From a virus (Duplodnaviria > Heunggongvirae > Uroviricota > Caudoviricetes), in IMG/VR virus record IMGVR_UViG_2565956726_000008: a stretch of 64,000 nt of DNA. One strand, 5' to 3'. The notes below the pieces were generated by a model, which was not told the origin of the DNA, did no database searches, and worked only from the letters and a program-made list of their open reading frames with translations. Shown piece after piece: positions 10,105 through 62,789 of this stretch. Position 1 is the first letter of the stretch; each line of letters starts with the position of its first letter. Made by a program: the position numbers and the translations under genes.

Positions 10105-10359
10105 TCACTTATGAGTGCCTTTCACGCCACATAACTTGTTATAGGCATGGTGCTCAACAATTAACCAAACCTTCAAATCTTCGCTAAACAGCCTCCAATC
10201 AAGATTGATATCCATTTTGTATCCGTAACCGTCGCGTAACTTTTTGGGGTAAACTTCTTTTCTCAGAAAGGCTTTAAGTAATTCCTTACCTTTCTTGATG
10301 ATCCGGTCCTGTGCGTTTTTCTGTGCTTTCAGATTTCTGTCAATCGCTACCAGTTTCAT
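10105..10359 (-). CDS. RelE/ParE-fold toxin-like protein (candidate)
   Basis: 84 aa, basic; C-terminal pattern DWRLF...VWLIVEHHAY resembles RelE/ParE family; second gene of two-gene operon. Confidence 0.4.
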   Translation of the reverse strand: MKLVAIDRNLKAQKNAQDRIIKKGKELLKAFLRKEVYPKKLRDGYGYKMDINLDWRLFSEDLKVWLIVEHHAYNKLCGVKGTHK

Positions 10360-48825: not shown

Positions 48826-49920
48826 ATGAGCAGACCGGACTGGGGGGCGTTGCAGCAGGAGTATATTGCTGAATACACCCGCTCCGGTATATCTCCGGTG
48901 GCATGGTGTGAAGCAAGGGGACTGAATTACGCAACAGCCCGTCGTTACATCAAAAAAACTCCGAAAAATGCGCAGACAGAAATGTGCAAAACTGCGCAAA
49001 AAAGTGCGCAGAAAAAATCTGCGCAGACTGCACAAAAGCGGAACGAAAAATCTCAGGAAAAAAAGCCAGTATTCGATGCGGGCCTGAATGAGGGCGACGC
49101 GGAGGAATTTTCGTTCTGTCCCGATGAATTCGGCATTTCTGACCAGCAGGCTAAGTTTGCGATGCTTGTTGCTCAGGGTAAAAAGCCGACAGAGGCGTAC
49201 CGACTAGCCGGTTATGAGGGGCAAGGTGCGACAGCTAATAGCAACGCCAGTCGTATGCTTAGAAATGCCAGGGTTTTTCGCGCTATCAGCTACTTCCGCA
49301 ATCAGTACCAGAAACGCTATACCGCAGACCTGGATTTACTAGTGAGTCAGTTGATGGCCATTGTCCTGGCCGACCCCAATCAGCTTGCACAATTTCGCCG
49401 TGTTAACTGCCGTTATTGCTGGGGCGAGAATCATCTCTACCAGTGGCGCGATATAGCAGAATTCGACAAGGCAGCGGCGCAGGCTTCCAGAGATGGCAAA
49501 CCCGAACCGGAATATGGAGGCCTCGGCTTTGTTGATAACGCCATACCCAATCCGGACTGCCCGAAGTGCTGCGGTGAGGGAACGGGACAGCTTTATATGG
49601 CTGATACCACTCTGCTTGATGGGGATGCGCGGCAATTATATGCAGGGGCAAAATTCGGAAAATTCGGCGTTGAGATCCTGCTGGAGGATAAGGCTGCCGC
49701 CCGGCGTGAATTGTTGCGTTTGCTTTCTGCTGGCGGGGCTTTATGTGCAGATAAGCGGCTACAGGAACTGGAAATTGAACGGCGCAGAATGGAAAACCAG
49801 AAGCTGCGCAAAGAGATCGAAACGGTGGAAGATAATGAACATCCCCAGCCTGTGGCGATCAATATTAATGTGGTTGATGCCAGAGTAAGGAGTGATGAAG
49901 ATGATCTCTCCGACGCTTAA
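48826..49920 (+). CDS. terminase small subunit-like protein (N-terminal HTH, Cys-rich zinc-ribbon-like region)
   Basis: 364 aa; immediately upstream of and overlapping the large terminase gene; CxxC...CPKCC motifs. Confidence 0.45.
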   Translation: MSRPDWGALQQEYIAEYTRSGISPVAWCEARGLNYATARRYIKKTPKNAQTEMCKTAQKSAQKKSAQTAQKRNEKSQEKKPVFDAGLNEGDAEEFSFCPDEFGISDQQAKFAMLVAQGKKPTEAYRLAGYEGQGATANSNASRMLRNARVFRAISYFRNQYQKRYTADLDLLVSQLMAIVLADPNQLAQFRRVNCRYCWGENHLYQWRDIAEFDKAAAQASRDGKPEPEYGGLGFVDNAIPNPDCPKCCGEGTGQLYMADTTLLDGDARQLYAGAKFGKFGVEILLEDKAAARRELLRLLSAGGALCADKRLQELEIERRRMENQKLRKEIETVEDNEHPQPVAININVVDARVRSDEDDLSDA

Positions 49921-51202
49921 TGTGCCTCAGGCGCGATTTCTTTCAATGCCCCATAAATTTAAAGCCTATATTGCTGGTTTTGGCTCGGGCAAAACATGGG
50001 TTGGGTGTGGCGGCATATGCAAGGGGATTTGGGAGCATCCAGGTATAAATCAGGGATATTTTGCGCCAACGTATCCCCAAATTCGCGATATTTTTTACCC
50101 TACAGTGGAAGAAGTTGCTGCTGACTGGGGATTGAACGTAAAAATTAATGAGGGAAATAAAGAGGTTCACTTTTATTACGGACGCCAGTATCGGGGAACC
50201 ACTATCTGCAGATCGATGGAGAAGCCACAAACGATCGTCGGTTTCAAAATTGGTAATGCGTTGGTGGATGAACTGGACATTTTGCCGAAGGAAAAAGCCA
50301 GAACGGCGTGGCGCAAGATAATTGCACGTATGCGTTATAAGATTGATGGACTTCGCAACGGTATTGACGTTACAACCACGCCGGAAGGATTCAAATTTGT
50401 CTACGAGCAGTTTGTTAAAGCCGTGCGTGAAAAAACAGAGCTGGCCTCACTGTATGGTCTGGTGCAGGCATCTACTTTCGATAATGAAAAGAACCTGCCA
50501 GCAGATTACATTCCTTCGCTTCTTGAATCATACCCTCCAGAGCTGATTAAAGCCTATCTTCGAGGACAGTTTACTAACCTGACAAGTGGTACTGTTTACC
50601 ATCAGTTTGACCGGAAACTGAATAATTGCGAAGAAGTGGAGCAGCCAGGGGAGCCGATTTATATTGGGATGGATTTTAACGTTGGAAAGATGGCGGGAAT
50701 CGTCCATGTGCTGCGTTTGGGGCTTCCATGTGCGGTAACTGAAATCATCAATGCCTACGATACGCCGGATATGATCCGCATCATTAAAGAACGCTTCTGG
50801 CTGTATGATGGGAATGATTACCGGAAAGTGAGGGAAATTTATATTTATCCAGATGCTTCCGGGGATTCCAGAAAATCAAGTAACGCAAGTACGACGGATA
50901 TAGCCCAGCTTAAGCAGGCTGGTTTTAACGTTGTGGTGAACAGCTCGAACCCGCCAGTAAAAGATCGCGTTAACTCAATGAATGCAATGTTCTGCAATGC
51001 CAATGGTGAGCGTCGCTATAAAGTTAATGTGAAGCGTTGCCCGTTATATGCCGAATCTCTGGAGCAACAGGTCTGGGATGAGAAGGGGGAGCCTGATAAA
51101 AAATCTGGCAATGATCACCCGAATGATGCCGGAGGTTATTTCATCGTTAAGCAATTCCCTATTGTCAAACCGACCGGAAGAGTCACATCACTTCGGATTT
51201 AA
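49892..51202 (+). CDS. terminase large subunit
   Basis: 436 aa; Walker A GFGSGKT; position before portal. Confidence 0.8.
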   Translation: MMKMISPTLNVPQARFLSMPHKFKAYIAGFGSGKTWVGCGGICKGIWEHPGINQGYFAPTYPQIRDIFYPTVEEVAADWGLNVKINEGNKEVHFYYGRQYRGTTICRSMEKPQTIVGFKIGNALVDELDILPKEKARTAWRKIIARMRYKIDGLRNGIDVTTTPEGFKFVYEQFVKAVREKTELASLYGLVQASTFDNEKNLPADYIPSLLESYPPELIKAYLRGQFTNLTSGTVYHQFDRKLNNCEEVEQPGEPIYIGMDFNVGKMAGIVHVLRLGLPCAVTEIINAYDTPDMIRIIKERFWLYDGNDYRKVREIYIYPDASGDSRKSSNASTTDIAQLKQAGFNVVVNSSNPPVKDRVNSMNAMFCNANGERRYKVNVKRCPLYAESLEQQVWDEKGEPDKKSGNDHPNDAGGYFIVKQFPIVKPTGRVTSLRI

Positions 51203-56815: not shown

Positions 56816-57196
56816 ATGGCAAAGGCATGGGATATAGAACCGTCAATATTTGCCGGGATGATTGAGGAAGATGTAGGGCTGAAGATTCGCTACATCGCTA
56901 TTCAGATTCTTACTGCTATTGATATTGCTGCTCCGGTTGATACCGGACGTTTCAGAAATAACAACCTGGTGTCGTTACAGCATCCCGATTTTGGTATATC
57001 TGATAACGTGGATCCGAACGGTACGATTGCTGTTCAGCGTGGGATCGGGGTTATTTCGAAAGCTGCAAATTACGGGGTTATTTATATCCAGAATAACCTT
57101 CCTTATGCAGAGGCTCTTGAAAACGGTCATTCACAACAAGCGCCAACTGGCGTGTATGCCAACGCTTTTCATGGTGTTTTACAGGCTTACAAATGA
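56816..57196 (+). CDS. HK97 gp10-like tail component protein
   Basis: 126 aa with PVDTGRFR motif. Confidence 0.5.
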   Translation: MAKAWDIEPSIFAGMIEEDVGLKIRYIAIQILTAIDIAAPVDTGRFRNNNLVSLQHPDFGISDNVDPNGTIAVQRGIGVISKAANYGVIYIQNNLPYAEALENGHSQQAPTGVYANAFHGVLQAYK

Positions 57197-57585
57197 AGTT
57201 TACTGAAATCAGAAATACGGTTATTTCCAGAATGACGGCACAGACGATTATTGATGGAAAAGACGTATTGTATCCGAACGGGCCAACGTTCGATCCTTCC
57301 GGTAAGTTAATCTGGGCGCGGTTAAGTAATATTCCCGGGCAAGCTGGAGTTAATGAAATTGGCGCGGGGCCGGTTGTTTATCGCACGGGGATAATCATTA
57401 TTCAGTTATTTGTCCCCGCAGGTTCTGGTTCAAAACTCATTACTGAGACAGCCGATAAATTGCGGGAACTGTTTGAGTTTCAGGATGACGATCGTCTCAG
57501 TTACCAGGCTGTTTCCTCAATAGCCGTCGGCGAAAAGAATGGCTGGTTCCAGCTTAATCTTCAAATTCCATATCGCGCGCTCTAG
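57193..57585 (+). CDS. tail terminator-like protein
   Basis: 130 aa; position before major tail gene. Confidence 0.45.
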   Translation: MKFTEIRNTVISRMTAQTIIDGKDVLYPNGPTFDPSGKLIWARLSNIPGQAGVNEIGAGPVVYRTGIIIIQLFVPAGSGSKLITETADKLRELFEFQDDDRLSYQAVSSIAVGEKNGWFQLNLQIPYRAL

Positions 57586-57611: not shown

Positions 57612-58574
57612 GTGAGTTCAGGTGCAAAGGTTATCTCGGCATTTATCCGGGAGACAGTTGCAGGCACTACGCCAGCAAGTGGTGACTGGAGTTTATTAAA
57701 ACGCACAAGCTGGGGAGTAAAACCCACCCAGAATAAAGGCGAAAATAATGAGATTGGTGGCTCCCGGATGGCTCAGGGGGCGACGCCTGGCACTGTGGAT
57801 GTCGGCGGTGATGTTGGTACCAAATTTCGCTGGGGTCAACATGATGATTTTCTTGCATCCTGTTTCGGCGCGGAATGGTCAGGCGATTCTCTGACAATGG
57901 GGAATGAGCGAATAACATTTTCTCTGGCGACCTATGCGTCCGATGTCGGAATTGCCTCTGTCGTCAGAGGAGCGCAGGTTGGCTCATGGAAAATGCAGAT
58001 CCCTAACGACGGCGATATTACAGCGACCGTAACCTTTGCCGGGCTGGGCTGGGAATCAAAGGCCGATGATACGAATTTTATCAAAGGCGAACCTGTGGAT
58101 AGTGCAGGAAAGTTACGCTATTCGTTTAAGGCGGTTTCAGCAGTAAGCCTGAATGGTGTTGCCGGAGGTAACGGTTTTTGTATCGACAGTTTTGATATTC
58201 AGTTCGATAACAAACTCCAGACACAGCGTTGTATCGGGACTGGCTCGCCTTATGCAGGAGCAAATATTCCGACTACTTTTACACCGTCCGGTACGGTGAC
58301 GCTTTCATGGTCTAAAGCCGCGTGGGAAATCTGGAGTAAAACACTGACTGGAGAAACAGTTCCGTTCAGCTTCACGCTTTCGAATGGAGAGGGGGCATAC
58401 ACTTTCAGTTTCCCGAAGGTTCAGGTGTCAGGTGAATGGCCTGATGGGGGTAATACTGACATTATCCAGGTTCAATTGAGCATTACCGCAGCAGATGAAG
58501 CACCTACGATAACCAGAAAAAAATGCTCCCCGACTGCCGTGATCGCAAAAGCCAGTGCTGATGCGATTAGTTGA
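57612..58574 (+). CDS. major tail protein (prophage B)
   Basis: 320 aa, beta-rich; position before chaperone G/GT. Confidence 0.7.
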   Translation: MSSGAKVISAFIRETVAGTTPASGDWSLLKRTSWGVKPTQNKGENNEIGGSRMAQGATPGTVDVGGDVGTKFRWGQHDDFLASCFGAEWSGDSLTMGNERITFSLATYASDVGIASVVRGAQVGSWKMQIPNDGDITATVTFAGLGWESKADDTNFIKGEPVDSAGKLRYSFKAVSAVSLNGVAGGNGFCIDSFDIQFDNKLQTQRCIGTGSPYAGANIPTTFTPSGTVTLSWSKAAWEIWSKTLTGETVPFSFTLSNGEGAYTFSFPKVQVSGEWPDGGNTDIIQVQLSITAADEAPTITRKKCSPTAVIAKASADAIS

Positions 58575-58622
58575 TTTTCCGTTATTCCCCCTGTGGTACT
58601 GCACTACAGGGGGACGCATTGA

Positions 58623-59084
58623 ATGAGGTTATGGATGTTTATTCTTAATCAGAAAATTATCATCGGTGGAGAACGCTGGTTTACGCCAATGAAGGACTTA
58701 AAACCTATAGACGGGTTAAAACTGTTGGTGGCAAGCAGCGATAACGATCAGTATCGCTCCCGTAATGCATTAATCCGTCGTCACATTGAGAAAATGGATG
58801 CCAGTTTGCACGTCGGAACGAAGGAGTTTGATATTTCAAAGGTTTCCGAGGTAGATTCTGTTGATGATTTACTCATTGATAATGCTGCTCGTTATCTGCT
58901 GAAAGACTGGAAAGGGGTTGGTGAACTGGTTAATGGTGCTGAGGTTGCACTGGAATATACGCCAGAACGAGGGATCGCGCTGCTTAAGCAGAATCCAGAG
59001 TTGTACTGGCAGATCCTTGCAGAAGCAGCCAGCATCGCCCAGGGTAAAGAGCAGCAGAAGCAGGATACGATAAAAAAGCCATAG
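58623..59084 (+). CDS. tail assembly chaperone G
   Basis: 153 aa ending ...DTIKKP; slippery A_AAA_AAG 7 nt before stop. Confidence 0.7.
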   Translation: MRLWMFILNQKIIIGGERWFTPMKDLKPIDGLKLLVASSDNDQYRSRNALIRRHIEKMDASLHVGTKEFDISKVSEVDSVDDLLIDNAARYLLKDWKGVGELVNGAEVALEYTPERGIALLKQNPELYWQILAEAASIAQGKEQQKQDTIKKP

Positions 59085-59392
59085 CCGCCCAGCGGTGGTT
59101 ATCGGAGTTCGGGGGAGAAAGGGGGGAAAAGGCAAGATGGAAGCGAGAAAAACTCAGGTTGCCACCGATACCGGAACCAGAAATAGACCCGGTGCTTAAG
59201 GAATTGTTGTACGCCTATTCGGTAATATCCCGTGCCCGACGTTATGCTGGAATGACCGGGGTGCCTTTGCCTTTATCTCTGACAGAGATAAATGAATATT
59301 TAGCCACTCATCCGGTATTGATTGAGCGCGATGAGTTTGAAGCAGTGATCTTTGCACTGGATGACCAGTATTTTCAGGAGCAGTGTGTGTAG
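59048..59392 (+). CDS. T-domain reading frame of G-T fusion reached by -1 frameshift
   Basis: -1 frame is open from ~59048 through 59392 and overlaps the G 3' end; lambda G/GT analogy. Confidence 0.55.
   Translation, partial: RAAEAGYDKKAIAAQRWLSEFGGERGEKARWKREKLRLPPIPEPEIDPVLKELLYAYSVISRARRYAGMTGVPLPLSLTEINEYLATHPVLIERDEFEAVIFALDDQYFQEQCV
59072..59078 (+). other. programmed -1 ribosomal frameshift heptamer A_AAA_AAG
   Basis: Heptamer sits in the G frame as A AAA AAG, the same slippery sequence as in dnaX. Confidence 0.5.
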
Positions 59393-59555
59393 TTGTTAAT
59401 TACGTACACTCTGTTACAGAGATGTGATGGTGTCTTTAATTAAATCGATGATGCTCCTGGAGAAAAGCATTGCGTGGCCTCGTAATCGCTATATCTACTA
59501 TTATGTCGCCTGAAACCCACTTCGGTGGGCTTTTTGTTGTCTGGAGTTTTAATAA

Positions 59556-62500
59556 ATGGCAGAGCAAACCTCGCGTCTCGCAATAATTATTGATAGCACT
59601 GGAGCAAAAAATAATGCTGACAATCTGACCTCCTCATTAGTCAAAATGACGCAGGCCGGGGAAACTGCTGCAAATAGCGCAGGGAAAGTGACTAAGGCAA
59701 CAGAAGATGAGAAGAACGCGCTCGCAAAATTAAAAGCAGCTATTGATCCAGTTGGTGCCGCAATTGATACTGTCGGTCGACGCTATTCTGAATTAAAGAA
59801 ATTTTTCGATAAAGGGCTTATTGATAAAGAAGAATATGAATTTCTTGTCCGTAAACTTAATGAAACCACAGAGGAATTGAGCGGGGTTGCGCAAGCGCAG
59901 AGAGAAGCCGAGAAGGCCGGAAAACTTGCTGCCGCCCAGCAGGAAGCGCAGACTCAGGCCTTTCAAAGAATGCTGGACAAGATCGACCCTCTGGCTGCGG
60001 CGCTAAGAAATCTTGAACAACAGCAGGATGAACTTAATGCTGCGTTTGCATCCGGGAAAATAAATGGTTCTCAGTTTGAGAATTATAGCCGAAAAATACA
60101 GGAAACACGGCGAGAGCTTACCGGAGAGGCTCAGGCAGAGCGAGAAGCAGCAAAAGCGCATGATGAACAGGTTGCTGCTTTGCAACGTCTGATTGCTCAA
60201 CTTGACCCTGTCGGAACTGCTTTTAATCGTCTGGTAGAACAACAGAAACAGCTCAATGAAGCAAAAGCTAAGGGGATGCTCTCTCCTGAAATGTATGAGG
60301 AACTTTCTGGAAAACTTCGTGCTATGCGGAGTGAGCTTGAGGTTACTCAATCTCAATTAAGCAAAACCGGAATGTCGGCAAAACAAACGGCTTTTGCTAT
60401 GCGCATGTTGCCTGCACAAATGACGGATATTGTTGTTGGGTTGTCCACTGGTCAGTCGCCTTTTATGGTGTTAATGCAGCAGGGCGGCCAGCTAAAAGAT
60501 ATGTTCGGTGGGATTGGCCCGGCGATCAAAGGTGTTGGTTCTTATGTGCTGGGATTAATTAATCCTTTTACCCTGGCCGCAGCAGCCGTTGGCGTCTTAG
60601 GGCTGGCTTACTATAAAGGCTCTCAGGAGCAGGACGAATTTAATAAGTCTCTTATTCTTACCGGAAATCAGTTGGGGACAACCAGCGGGCAATTGGCCGA
60701 TATAGTTCAACGTGCCGGGAATGCGGCTGATTCGACAACTGGCGCTGCGGCGGCAGTATTAAACCAGCTTGTGCGTTCGGGAAAGGTAGCGAGCAGTTCG
60801 CTGGAGCAAGTGACGACAGCGATAGTAAAAACGAGCGAAGTAACAGGAATATCAACCGAACAACTGGTTAATGACTTCAATGAAATTGCAAAGGATCCTG
60901 TCAGTGCCATATCAAAACTTAATGATCAGTACCATTTTCTGACAATTGCGACTTATAACCAGATTAAGGCGCTACAGGATGAAGGGAACCAGCAGGAGGC
61001 CGCCCGCATTGCGACAGAAGCATACTCATCCTCAATGATCCAGCGCACCAACCAGATTAAAGAAAATCTTGGTTATCTTGAGACTGCATGGAAAGCTGTC
61101 GCAGACTCCGCAAAATGGGCATGGGATTCCATGCTGGATATTGGCCGTGAGGCCTCCCTTGATCAAAAAATCTCAGATGTTCTCCGTCAAATTGATGAAA
61201 TAGAAAAAAATACCCGACCCGGAGTTTTCGGGTTAGGTGGCATTGGAGATGGCGGAGCTCAAAATAAAAGGCTGGCACGATTAAAGCAGCAATTGGGCGT
61301 ACTTCAAGCAGAAAAAATTGCTCAGGACGTACTAAATTCATCAATAAACGATTACAACAAGCGACAACAGGAAGGAATTGAACTCAGACAGAGAGCAGAT
61401 GCCTTTTCAAAACAATATCAGACCCGGGAGCAGCAGAGAGCTAGTGAACTTGCAAAACTGGAAAAACTAAAGAGTCAGTATTCAAAGGAAGAATATAATA
61501 ATCTTATCGCTCAAATAAATGAGCGTTATAAAGATCCAAAGCAACCAAAGGCGAAAGGTTATTCGGATGATGCTGCCCAACGAATGATTGATCATCTGAA
61601 TCAACAGAATGCGTTACTAAGTTCACAAACTGAATTAACCGTTAAATTAAGTTCCTCTGAACAGGAACTGGTTAAGTGGCGTCAGCAGATTGCCGACCTG
61701 GAGTCACGACCGTCATCGAAATTAACCAAGGATCAGAAATCGCTTCTCTTACACCGGGAAGAAATAACCGCGTTGATGGAGAAAAATGTTGCGATTGAAA
61801 AAAATAACAGGCTAATCAAGGAATCCGCCGAAATAGCTGCATGGCGTGATTCATTGCAGGCTTCGATTGATAATCGTCAACAGGGGTATGATATTCAGAT
61901 TGCTGGTTATGGGGTTGGCGATAAAAATCAGCAACGCCAGCAGGAATTACTGCGGATTGAACGTGAATATAACAATCAGCGTCTGCAACTTGAACGTGAC
62001 TATGCAGATAAATCCCGTGGGATGTCAAATCATGTTTTTCAGGAGAAAATGCAGGCTCTGAATGATGCTCTGGAACGAGAAAAAGAAATTGTCAGACAGA
62101 AAAACGAGCAGCTCGATATTCAGGCAGGAGACTGGGTTAGTGGTGCCTCCCAGGGATTCAATAACTGGCTGGATGACACTAAGGATATCAGTGAGCAGAT
62201 AAAATCAACCACGACTCAGATGTTTGATGGAATGACCGATGCGCTGGGTGATTTTGTCACGACAGGCAAAGCAAATTTTCGTTCTTTCGCTACTTCCGTG
62301 ATTTCGGATCTTAGTCGAATAGCATTAAAGGCTTCAATTACTGGGATTTTCGACAGCATTAGTAACAGTTCTTCTGGGGGGATTTTAGGAACTATCGGGA
62401 GTGCTATTAGTAAATTTATTCCGAATGCAAAGGGCGGTGTTTATGAGTCTCCGTCATTGAACACGTATTCGAACGGTATTTATGATTCCCCGCAATTTTT

Positions 62501-62789
62501 TGCTTTTGCAAGAGGGGCTGGTGTTTTTGGTGAGGCTGGTCCGGAAGCCATTATGCCATTAACACGAACTTCCGATGGTTCTCTTGGTGTCAGAGCTGTT
62601 AATAGTAAAAGTGGTAATGGAGGCGGAGATATTACCTATGCCCCTGTATACCAAATCACTATTCAAAATGACGGCCAGAATGGAGAGATTGGCCCTCAGG
62701 CAATAAAAGCACTTATGGGGATGGTTGATCAGCGGGTGCAGGGCAATCTGTTAAATATGCGACGTGATGGGGGAATGTTAAGTGGCTAA
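59556..62789 (+). CDS. tail tape measure protein (prophage B)
   Basis: 1077 aa, alpha-helical, Gln/Ala-rich; followed directly by M. Confidence 0.85.

Follow-up and report, generated by a model that had tools for sequence, protein, structure and literature searches.

In phages whose tail assembly chaperones belong to the G/GT class, the protein G is made together with a minor G-T fusion; both are needed for tail assembly, and both are absent from virions. Chaperones of this class are said to be produced through a programmed -1 frameshift, and in lambda the shift that yields gpG and gpGT reportedly takes place at the heptamer G_GGA_AAG. Lambda gpG and gpGT occur at a ratio of about 30:1, with G binding the tape measure protein and T the tube protein; frameshifting of the G-T kind is widespread among long-tailed phages (PMC5009743). 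A second heptamer, A_AAA_AAG, is the slippery site of dnaX. Ribosomes of E. coli shift very readily on both heptamers, since AAG pairs weakly with the only tRNA-Lys of that species (PMC5009743).

We describe here a locus with the G/GT arrangement in a window of 64,000 nucleotides, by which we mean the whole stretch of DNA that was analysed, taken from the IMG/VR virus record IMGVR_UViG_2565956726_000008. The locus belongs to a Rac-type siphovirus prophage of E. coli. DNA of the locus shares 98-100% identity with one Salmonella phage and with induced E. coli phages of the vB_EcoS series, and the tail module was found in 1074 of 5426 complete E. coli genomes. Gene G of this module is the gene named ydaY, of which the Rac prophage of K-12 keeps a remnant truncated at the 5' end, with the heptamer and T still present. 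From sequence comparison, we put at roughly 0.9 the probability that -1 ribosomal slippage at A_AAA_AAG (59072-59078) gives G (149 aa) and a minor G-T protein (252 aa). The initial annotation had proposed that a programmed -1 frameshift joins G to T, and the support that we can now offer for that proposal is mainly comparative, coming from conservation of the site, a switch in the constrained reading frame, and the lack of a start codon for T.

Gene order and anatomy of the G/T overlap

A profile search gave the order of the tail module in the window as tail terminator-like gene, tail tube, G, T, tape measure, lambda M-like gene (PF05939), and lambda L-like gene (PF05100), the last two lying after the tape measure gene. 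The G-T overlap sits between the tail tube and tape measure genes, which is the position that characterises the G/GT class. The relevant features are as follows.

57193-57585: tail terminator-like gene, the 5'-most in the tail order given
57612..58574, plus strand: tail tube (major tail) gene, PF18906 Phage_tube_2 (1.9e-32), directly 5' of G
58635..59084, plus strand: gene G, a ydaY-type tail assembly chaperone of 149 aa, phrog_313, the product of standard decoding
59072..59078, plus strand: slippery heptamer A_AAA_AAG, the proposed -1 shift site, with AAA in the P site and AAG in the A site
59082..59084, plus strand: 0-frame stop codon (TAG) of G, one codon past the heptamer
59078..59392, plus strand: -1-frame T segment of 104 codons and a stop, phrog_1189
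59079..59158, plus strand: N-terminal 27 codons of T, before any in-frame ATG, GTG, or TTG, carrying a -1-frame wobble signal
59079..59105, plus strand: local hairpin immediately 3' of the heptamer, its GC-rich upper stem (59084-59099) starting 5 nt after the heptamer
59556..62789, plus strand: tape measure protein gene, PF06791 TMP_2 (1.3e-80), plus PF09718 and PF24622, 3' of T

The open reading frame of G (58623..59084, plus strand) ends in ...GAT ACG ATA AAA AAG CCA TAG. Its heptamer, AAAAAAG, supplies the 0-frame codons AAA (59073-75) and AAG (59076-78), and so lies in the canonical X_XXY_YYZ register. A TAA at 59045-47 closes the -1 frame, which is then open from 59048 and ends with TAG at 59390-92. 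The coordinates and register given for the heptamer by the initial annotation, and its description of a -1 frame open from about 59048 to 59392, hold up on inspection; its spacing of 7 nt between heptamer and stop requires correction, since the actual gap is 3 nt (the codon CCA), or 10 nt measured from start to start.

Translation from the upstream ATG at 58623 would give a G of 153 aa. The true start is probably the ATG at 58635 (MFILNQ...), four codons inside the listed reading frame, because homologues begin at this position, with MFILNQ, MIILNP, or MLIINP. The conceptual G-T fusion is then 252 aa long and comprises G residues 1-148 and the 104 codons of T, with a junction that reads ...QDTIKK followed directly by AIAAQRWLSEF.... 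Conservation of the -1-frame translation of T, AIAAQRWLSEFGGERGEKARWKREKL..., sets in with the first codon past the heptamer. In the list of open reading frames, the T frame appears solely as a 77-aa frame starting from the TTG at 59159.

We infer the slippage event, its efficiency, the fusion protein, and the binding partners, as distinct from the anatomy, conservation, and frame switch, which are observed in the sequences compared. Both tail assembly chaperones would be made from one translation start. Most ribosomes would read G (58635..59084) through to its TAG, while a minority would slip back by one base at 59072-59078, where tRNA-Lys in the P and A sites would exchange pairing with AAA-AAG for pairing with AAA-AAA. 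Slipped ribosomes would then translate 59078 to 59392 in the -1 frame to complete the 252-aa G-T protein. Lambda gpG and gpGT suggest by analogy a role for each part: G would coat the tape measure protein (59556..62789), and T, the rarer part, would bring in the tail tube protein (57612..58574).

The bare pattern of a reading frame, a -1 frame, and a heptamer is not rare in a single sequence, and is not statistically remarkable. We surveyed all reading frames of at least 100 aa in the window (n=89), and found that 26 are followed by a -1-frame reading frame of at least 60 codons, mostly the next gene. Some in-register XXXYYYZ motif occurs in the overlap of eight of these 26 pairs, that of G included; A_AAA_AAG itself occurs in register just twice in the whole window. 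Because the pattern is this common, the significance of the G/T overlap comes from comparative data rather than from the window alone.

Conservation of the shift site and of the -1 frame

Loci encoding relatives of G were collected from viral contigs, species-representative genomes, and GenBank phages. The two-frame arrangement, with a shift-site motif at the junction, was found in about 100 related loci from at least eight genera, including induced phages and isolates. The genera span from Escherichia to Pantoea, Acinetobacter, and Pseudomonas. The survey of the site used the motif YRSRNAL as an anchor, which was possible in 93 loci; these represent 45 distinct sequences, with identities in G from 99% down to 63%. 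At one and the same codon, each of the 93 has a canonical heptamer in register. The heptamer is followed by a -1 reading frame of about 100-111 codons, with a shorter one in three loci. The 0-frame stop falls 1, 7, 25, or 34 codons past the heptamer, according to lineage, and the stop therefore is not a conserved part of the signal.

Two heptamers alternate at this codon. A_AAA_AAG is found in the lineages of Escherichia, Salmonella, Citrobacter, and Siccibacter, and G_GGA_AAG in Raoultella, Serratia, two species of Pantoea, and Acinetobacter phage TRS1. In 15 of 15 lineages, the heptamer type is matched by the wobble base of the Ile or Val codon just before it: ATA or GTA precedes AAA AAG, and GTG precedes GGA AAG. 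Between the two types the 0-frame residue changes from Lys to Gly, with the X_XXY_YYZ pattern retained. Such a change in amino acid, matched by a synonymous base in the neighbouring codon and leaving the slippery pattern intact, must be viewed as a sign that selection acts on slipperiness.

A few relatives have non-canonical motifs at the site. G_GGG_AAG occurs in one Pectobacterium prophage, and C_GCA_AAG, with TAA directly after it, in Erwinia phage Gungnir39. Pseudomonas phages phiPSA1, MR15, and Aurca01, which match both G (27%, E=3e-13) and T and have them split over two frames, carry G_GAA_AAG. A tentative reading, to which we give rather less than even odds, is that the shift site not only turns over between A_AAA_AAG and G_GGA_AAG but has decayed in some working phages to motifs that retain just the A-site part. 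If the phages with degenerate motifs still make G-T, then slippage of a single tRNA on A_AAG, without a canonical heptamer, would be enough for the low level of shifting required by tail assembly, and the chaperone family would offer a natural titration series of shift-site strength against G:GT ratio.

The frame under constraint switches at the heptamer. In an ungapped alignment of 14 representative lineages on the heptamer, mean pairwise amino acid identity in the 0 frame falls from 0.70 over the 20 codons upstream to 0.40 over the 32 codons downstream, and that in the -1 frame rises from 0.40 to 0.74. Upstream of the heptamer, nucleotide diversity is highest at the third position of 0-frame codons (0.51 vs 0.17, p=2.4e-7). 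Across 59079-59158, it is highest at the third position of -1-frame codons (0.49 vs 0.22 at positions 1 and 2; Mann-Whitney p=1.2e-5), and no such third-position signal was found for this stretch in the 0 or +1 frame. Diversity at wobble positions likewise indicates that T is under purifying selection across lineages.

The 80 nt from 59079 to 59158 precede the first possible start codon for T in the window, the TTG at 59159. That codon is missing in most relatives, and the next candidate, the TTG at 59207, similarly is not conserved. A search for a T-frame start conserved across relatives found none, the first universal start being codon 58. In two lineages (L070 and L096), the T frame has no ATG, GTG, or TTG at all until codon 58, a position within the conserved domain. 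A coding signal that begins upstream of any start codon, together with the lack of a conserved start, implies that the conserved N-terminus of T is translated and can be reached from G only.

These data bear directly on the best of the alternatives, that T is a separate small gene, translated from a start of its own (the TTG at 59159 for 77 aa, or the TTG at 59207 for 61 aa) or by reinitiation after the stop of G, next to an incidental heptamer. GenBank and RefSeq records annotate T in this manner, and the pairing of Shine-Dalgarno-like sequences ahead of the two candidates (-5.0 kcal/mol for TTG 59159 and -6.1 kcal/mol for TTG 59207) is comparable in the window to the pairing at the starts of G and of the tape measure gene. 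In this particular strain, a truncated T may to some extent be initiated independently. As a general account, a separate T gene is very improbable: its start codons come and go among relatives, 27 codons ahead of 59159 show conservation and wobble periodicity in the -1 frame that begin exactly at the heptamer, and the turnover of the heptamer with its co-varying synonymous base would be left unexplained. The same constraint upstream of 59159, and the same turnover of starts, bear out the view of the initial annotation that the 77-aa reading frame from TTG is almost certainly not the way in which T is expressed.

Still less probable is transcriptional slippage, in which RNA polymerase would leave out one base of the A run in some of the mRNAs. 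Nearly the same protein would result as from a ribosomal shift, and the six A residues at 59072-59077 are indeed homopolymeric. Productive transcriptional slippage in bacteria has been described, however, for runs of about nine A or T (PMC5009743), and relatives carry GGGAAAG, whose three G and three A residues make a good ribosomal shift site but a poor template for polymerase slippage.

A natural allele (P0011, 240 aa, from three independent samples) has G fused in frame to T. The fusion arises by a 35-nt deletion between GCAGAAGCAG direct repeats, and the allele is derived. Its existence indicates that the two parts form a unit compatible with a single polypeptide. Gene decay, whereby a frameshift mutation split an ancestral single G-T reading frame in a defective prophage and ended the production of T, could appeal to this in-frame allele and to the defective Rac remnant of K-12 with its truncated ydaY, but is close to negligible in probability given that the in-frame form is the derived one, that T still experiences purifying selection, and that phages obtained by induction or isolation share the two-frame arrangement with so many other loci.

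Stimulatory elements, families, and annotation

The initial annotation had suggested a search for a downstream stimulatory structure, and no conserved element was found. In the window, the 82 nt downstream of the heptamer fold no better than shuffled sequences (z=+0.42). Across 14 lineages, RNAalifold applied downstream of the heptamer returned just four weak pairs, with no covariation and no conserved structure. A shorter segment of the window, 59079-59105 (27 nt), does form a hairpin of -14.2 kcal/mol (z=-3.6), matched or beaten by one of 200 shuffles. This hairpin is confined to the Escherichia/Salmonella clade and is absent or weak in the others. It occurs as five haplotypes, among which one change turns G-C into G-U, one change falls in the loop, and two haplotypes break pairs; no compensatory change was found among the five. 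The Salmonella-type haplotype was ruled out as a compensatory change, being out of register and disrupting two pairs. This putative element may serve as an enhancer in its own lineage, or it may be incidental.

Upstream, an AGGA resembling a Shine-Dalgarno sequence lies 6 nt from the heptamer. We rejected it as a stimulator because it is explained by conserved Gln-Glu/Asp codons and is missing in four lineages (L092, L093, L094, and L096). An Rfam scan of 58400-59700 gave nothing relevant. By analogy with lambda, the shift site may work from the heptamer alone.

In PHROG profile searches, G matches phrog_313, "Tail assembly chaperone" (3.8e-46), and T matches phrog_1189 (1.7e-36), which is listed as of "unknown function". 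T also aligns weakly with the C-terminal part of phrog_313, a profile of 258 positions. PF27119, Phage_YdaY, is the precomputed domain of proteins that share 94-99% identity with G. Residues 179-247 of the fusion, within T, match PF23812, Phage_TAC_18, at 17.7 bits (E=0.004), below the gathering cut-off of 27 bits; the T of TRS1 scores 17.0 bits against the same model, also under the cut-off. These sub-threshold matches suggest at most that T may be distantly related to Phage_TAC_18.

Tail assembly chaperones with a spiral fold have reportedly been described. AlphaFold2 models reached a mean pLDDT of 38.9 for the G-T fusion from its single sequence and 50.9 for G from an alignment of 26 sequences, too low for a fold search. 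A search of PDB sequences with the family profile gave nothing beyond a chance match (E=0.85).

The public records that we inspected name G "YdaY", with the RefSeq start placed at an internal TTG (58725), copied from the K-12 fragment. T is present in public records as a separate hypothetical protein of 61 or 66 aa, or is left without annotation, and none of the inspected records of this E. coli locus carries a slippage annotation. A literature search on ydaY, ydaY frameshifting, and the tail assembly chaperones of Rac prophages found nothing relevant.

Comparison with lambda, dnaX, and phage TRS1

The G-T frameshift proposed here is of the known lambda-style type, and what is new is its recognition at a publicly unannotated locus. 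Its value lies mainly in annotation, in that it corrects a very common E. coli prophage gene, the K-12 relic ydaY included; the understanding of frameshifting and of tail assembly is unchanged by it. Viewing ydaY as an analogue of lambda G with a programmed frameshift would provide a function for a relic y-gene of K-12 and for PHROG 1189. The exchange of A_AAA_AAG and G_GGA_AAG with a co-varying synonymous base is, in addition, a textbook-style case of selection for slipperiness over amino acids.

The dnaX gamma/tau cassette has the identical heptamer, A_AAA_AAG, read by the single E. coli tRNA-Lys, but differs in its surroundings. About 10 nt upstream it has a Shine-Dalgarno-like stimulator, and on the 3' side a stem-loop that is conserved, whereas the AGGA of the window is at 6 nt and is not conserved. 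Description of the site as "dnaX-type" in the initial annotation is thus apt for the heptamer and does not extend to the dnaX stimulators, which have no conserved counterparts here. The consequences differ as well: at dnaX about 50% of ribosomes shift, and yield a shorter product, whereas the shift in the window would lengthen the protein.

The nearest annotated parallel is Acinetobacter phage vB_AbaS_TRS1 (RefSeq NC_031098), whose gp18/gp19 is recorded as a joined, two-piece coding sequence for a "putative tail assembly chaperone", with an in-register G_GGA_AAG inside the overlap of G and the -1 frame. The T proteins of TRS1 and the window are homologous (39% identity, E=3e-6), as are the tail tube proteins (26% identity, E=4e-30). 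The G proteins are barely recognisable as similar, with one weak motif in common (FLVNDWKG vs YLLKDWKG), and the shift motif of TRS1 falls at the corresponding ...V-G/K-K junction. TRS1 differs from the window in the heptamer itself and in a 0 frame that runs about 27 codons beyond the site. Both the joined annotation of this relative and the order of tube, G, T, and tape measure in the window accord with a G/GT-type frameshift.

The closeness to lambda is one of arrangement. In lambda, as in the window, the tube gene (V) is followed by G, by T in the -1 frame, and by the tape measure gene (H), with the shift site near the end of G and with no start codon belonging to T. The G stop lies one codon past the heptamer in the window and six in lambda, and T is 104 aa long in the window versus about 144 in lambda. 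Alignment to lambda GT, which the initial annotation had put forward as a check, detected no similarity: hhalign of the family profile against lambda GT gave a probability of 0.1%. Neither PF06894 (Phage_TAC_2) nor PF06223 (Phage_tail_T) matches the window fusion, and lambda GT scores 5.7e-61 and 6.3e-14, respectively, against these models. Membership in the lambda G and T sequence families is ruled out by these results. The earlier statement that the locus reproduces the lambda G/GT arrangement therefore stands for gene order and reading frames, and does not carry over to sequence similarity with lambda G or T. While the window has A_AAA_AAG, distant relatives of its G share the exact G_GGA_AAG of lambda (position 10109 of the lambda record). 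By this comparison, the locus appears to be a lambda-type G/GT analogue in architecture and function, outside the lambda sequence families.

Candidate shift motifs in relatives and elsewhere in the window

The proposed -1 slippage site in the tail assembly chaperone gene G, A_AAA_AAG at 59072-59078, is not universal among relatives of this locus. Four related loci that share the arrangement of G followed by T in the -1 frame lack a canonical heptamer there; at the corresponding codon they read as follows.

L099 (Pseudomonas phage Aurca01) and L102 (Pseudomonas phage phiPSA1): G_GAA_AAG
L101 (Erwinia phage Gungnir39): C_GCA_AAG, followed directly by TAA
L093 (Pectobacterium): G_GGG_AAG

The A-site AAG codon is kept in all four, while the minimal A_AAG tetranucleotide is kept in the relatives with G_GAA_AAG and C_GCA_AAG but not in the one with G_GGG_AAG.

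The window contains a second in-register copy of the heptamer.

49059-49065, + strand: A_AAA_AAG inside ORF 48826..49920

The local context AAAAAAGCCA is common to this copy and the G site. The ORF that holds it (+ strand, 364 aa) immediately precedes another large ORF, 49892..51202, with which it overlaps, and lies ahead of the head genes. A -1 shift here would add 8 residues before a stop, for a truncated product of about 90 aa. This copy of the heptamer may well be a chance occurrence.

Start and 0-frame tail of G

The intact G gene encodes 149-153 aa. In the one intact prophage whose RefSeq/PGAP start was inspected, that of strain 7/2, the entry for G is a 119-aa "protein YdaY" begun at an internal TTG (58725, versus 58635); this length agrees with the 5'-truncated ydaY of the K-12 Rac remnant, in which ydaY adjoins ynaK directly.

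At its other end, G varies among Salmonella-type relatives (L062-L068), whose TAG stop has become TTG at the equivalent of 59082-59084, so that the 0 frame runs on for 34 codons across the T frame. The resulting 183-aa G, P0005, has a Gly/Arg/Lys-rich tail. Both the heptamer and the T frame remain intact in these loci. It would seem from this that, beyond the shift site, the 0-frame end of G is unconstrained.

The region between T and the tape measure gene

Between the stop of T and the start of the tape measure gene lie 163 nt (59393-59555), which include two features.

59427..59513: 28-codon ORF, MVSLIKSMMLLEKSIAWPRNRYIYYYVA
59516-59539: terminator-like UUCG hairpin, CCCACTTCGGTGGG, with T tract, CTTTTTGTTG

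The latter ends 16 nt upstream of the tape measure ATG. Raoultella and Serratia relatives carry, directly after the T stop, an ORF that begins with a lipoprotein-like signal (MKK...LAGC), so this region looks like a site of moron insertion.

A natural in-frame G-T allele

In a natural E. coli allele, found in three independent samples, a 35-nt deletion between direct repeats GCAGAAGCAG places G and T in one frame.

L103:3001-3723, L104 and L105: deletion of the equivalent of window 59020-59054

This allele, whose product is the 240-aa P0011, would make G-T only, without free G. It is probably tail-defective if, as in lambda, G and GT must be kept in a balanced ratio.
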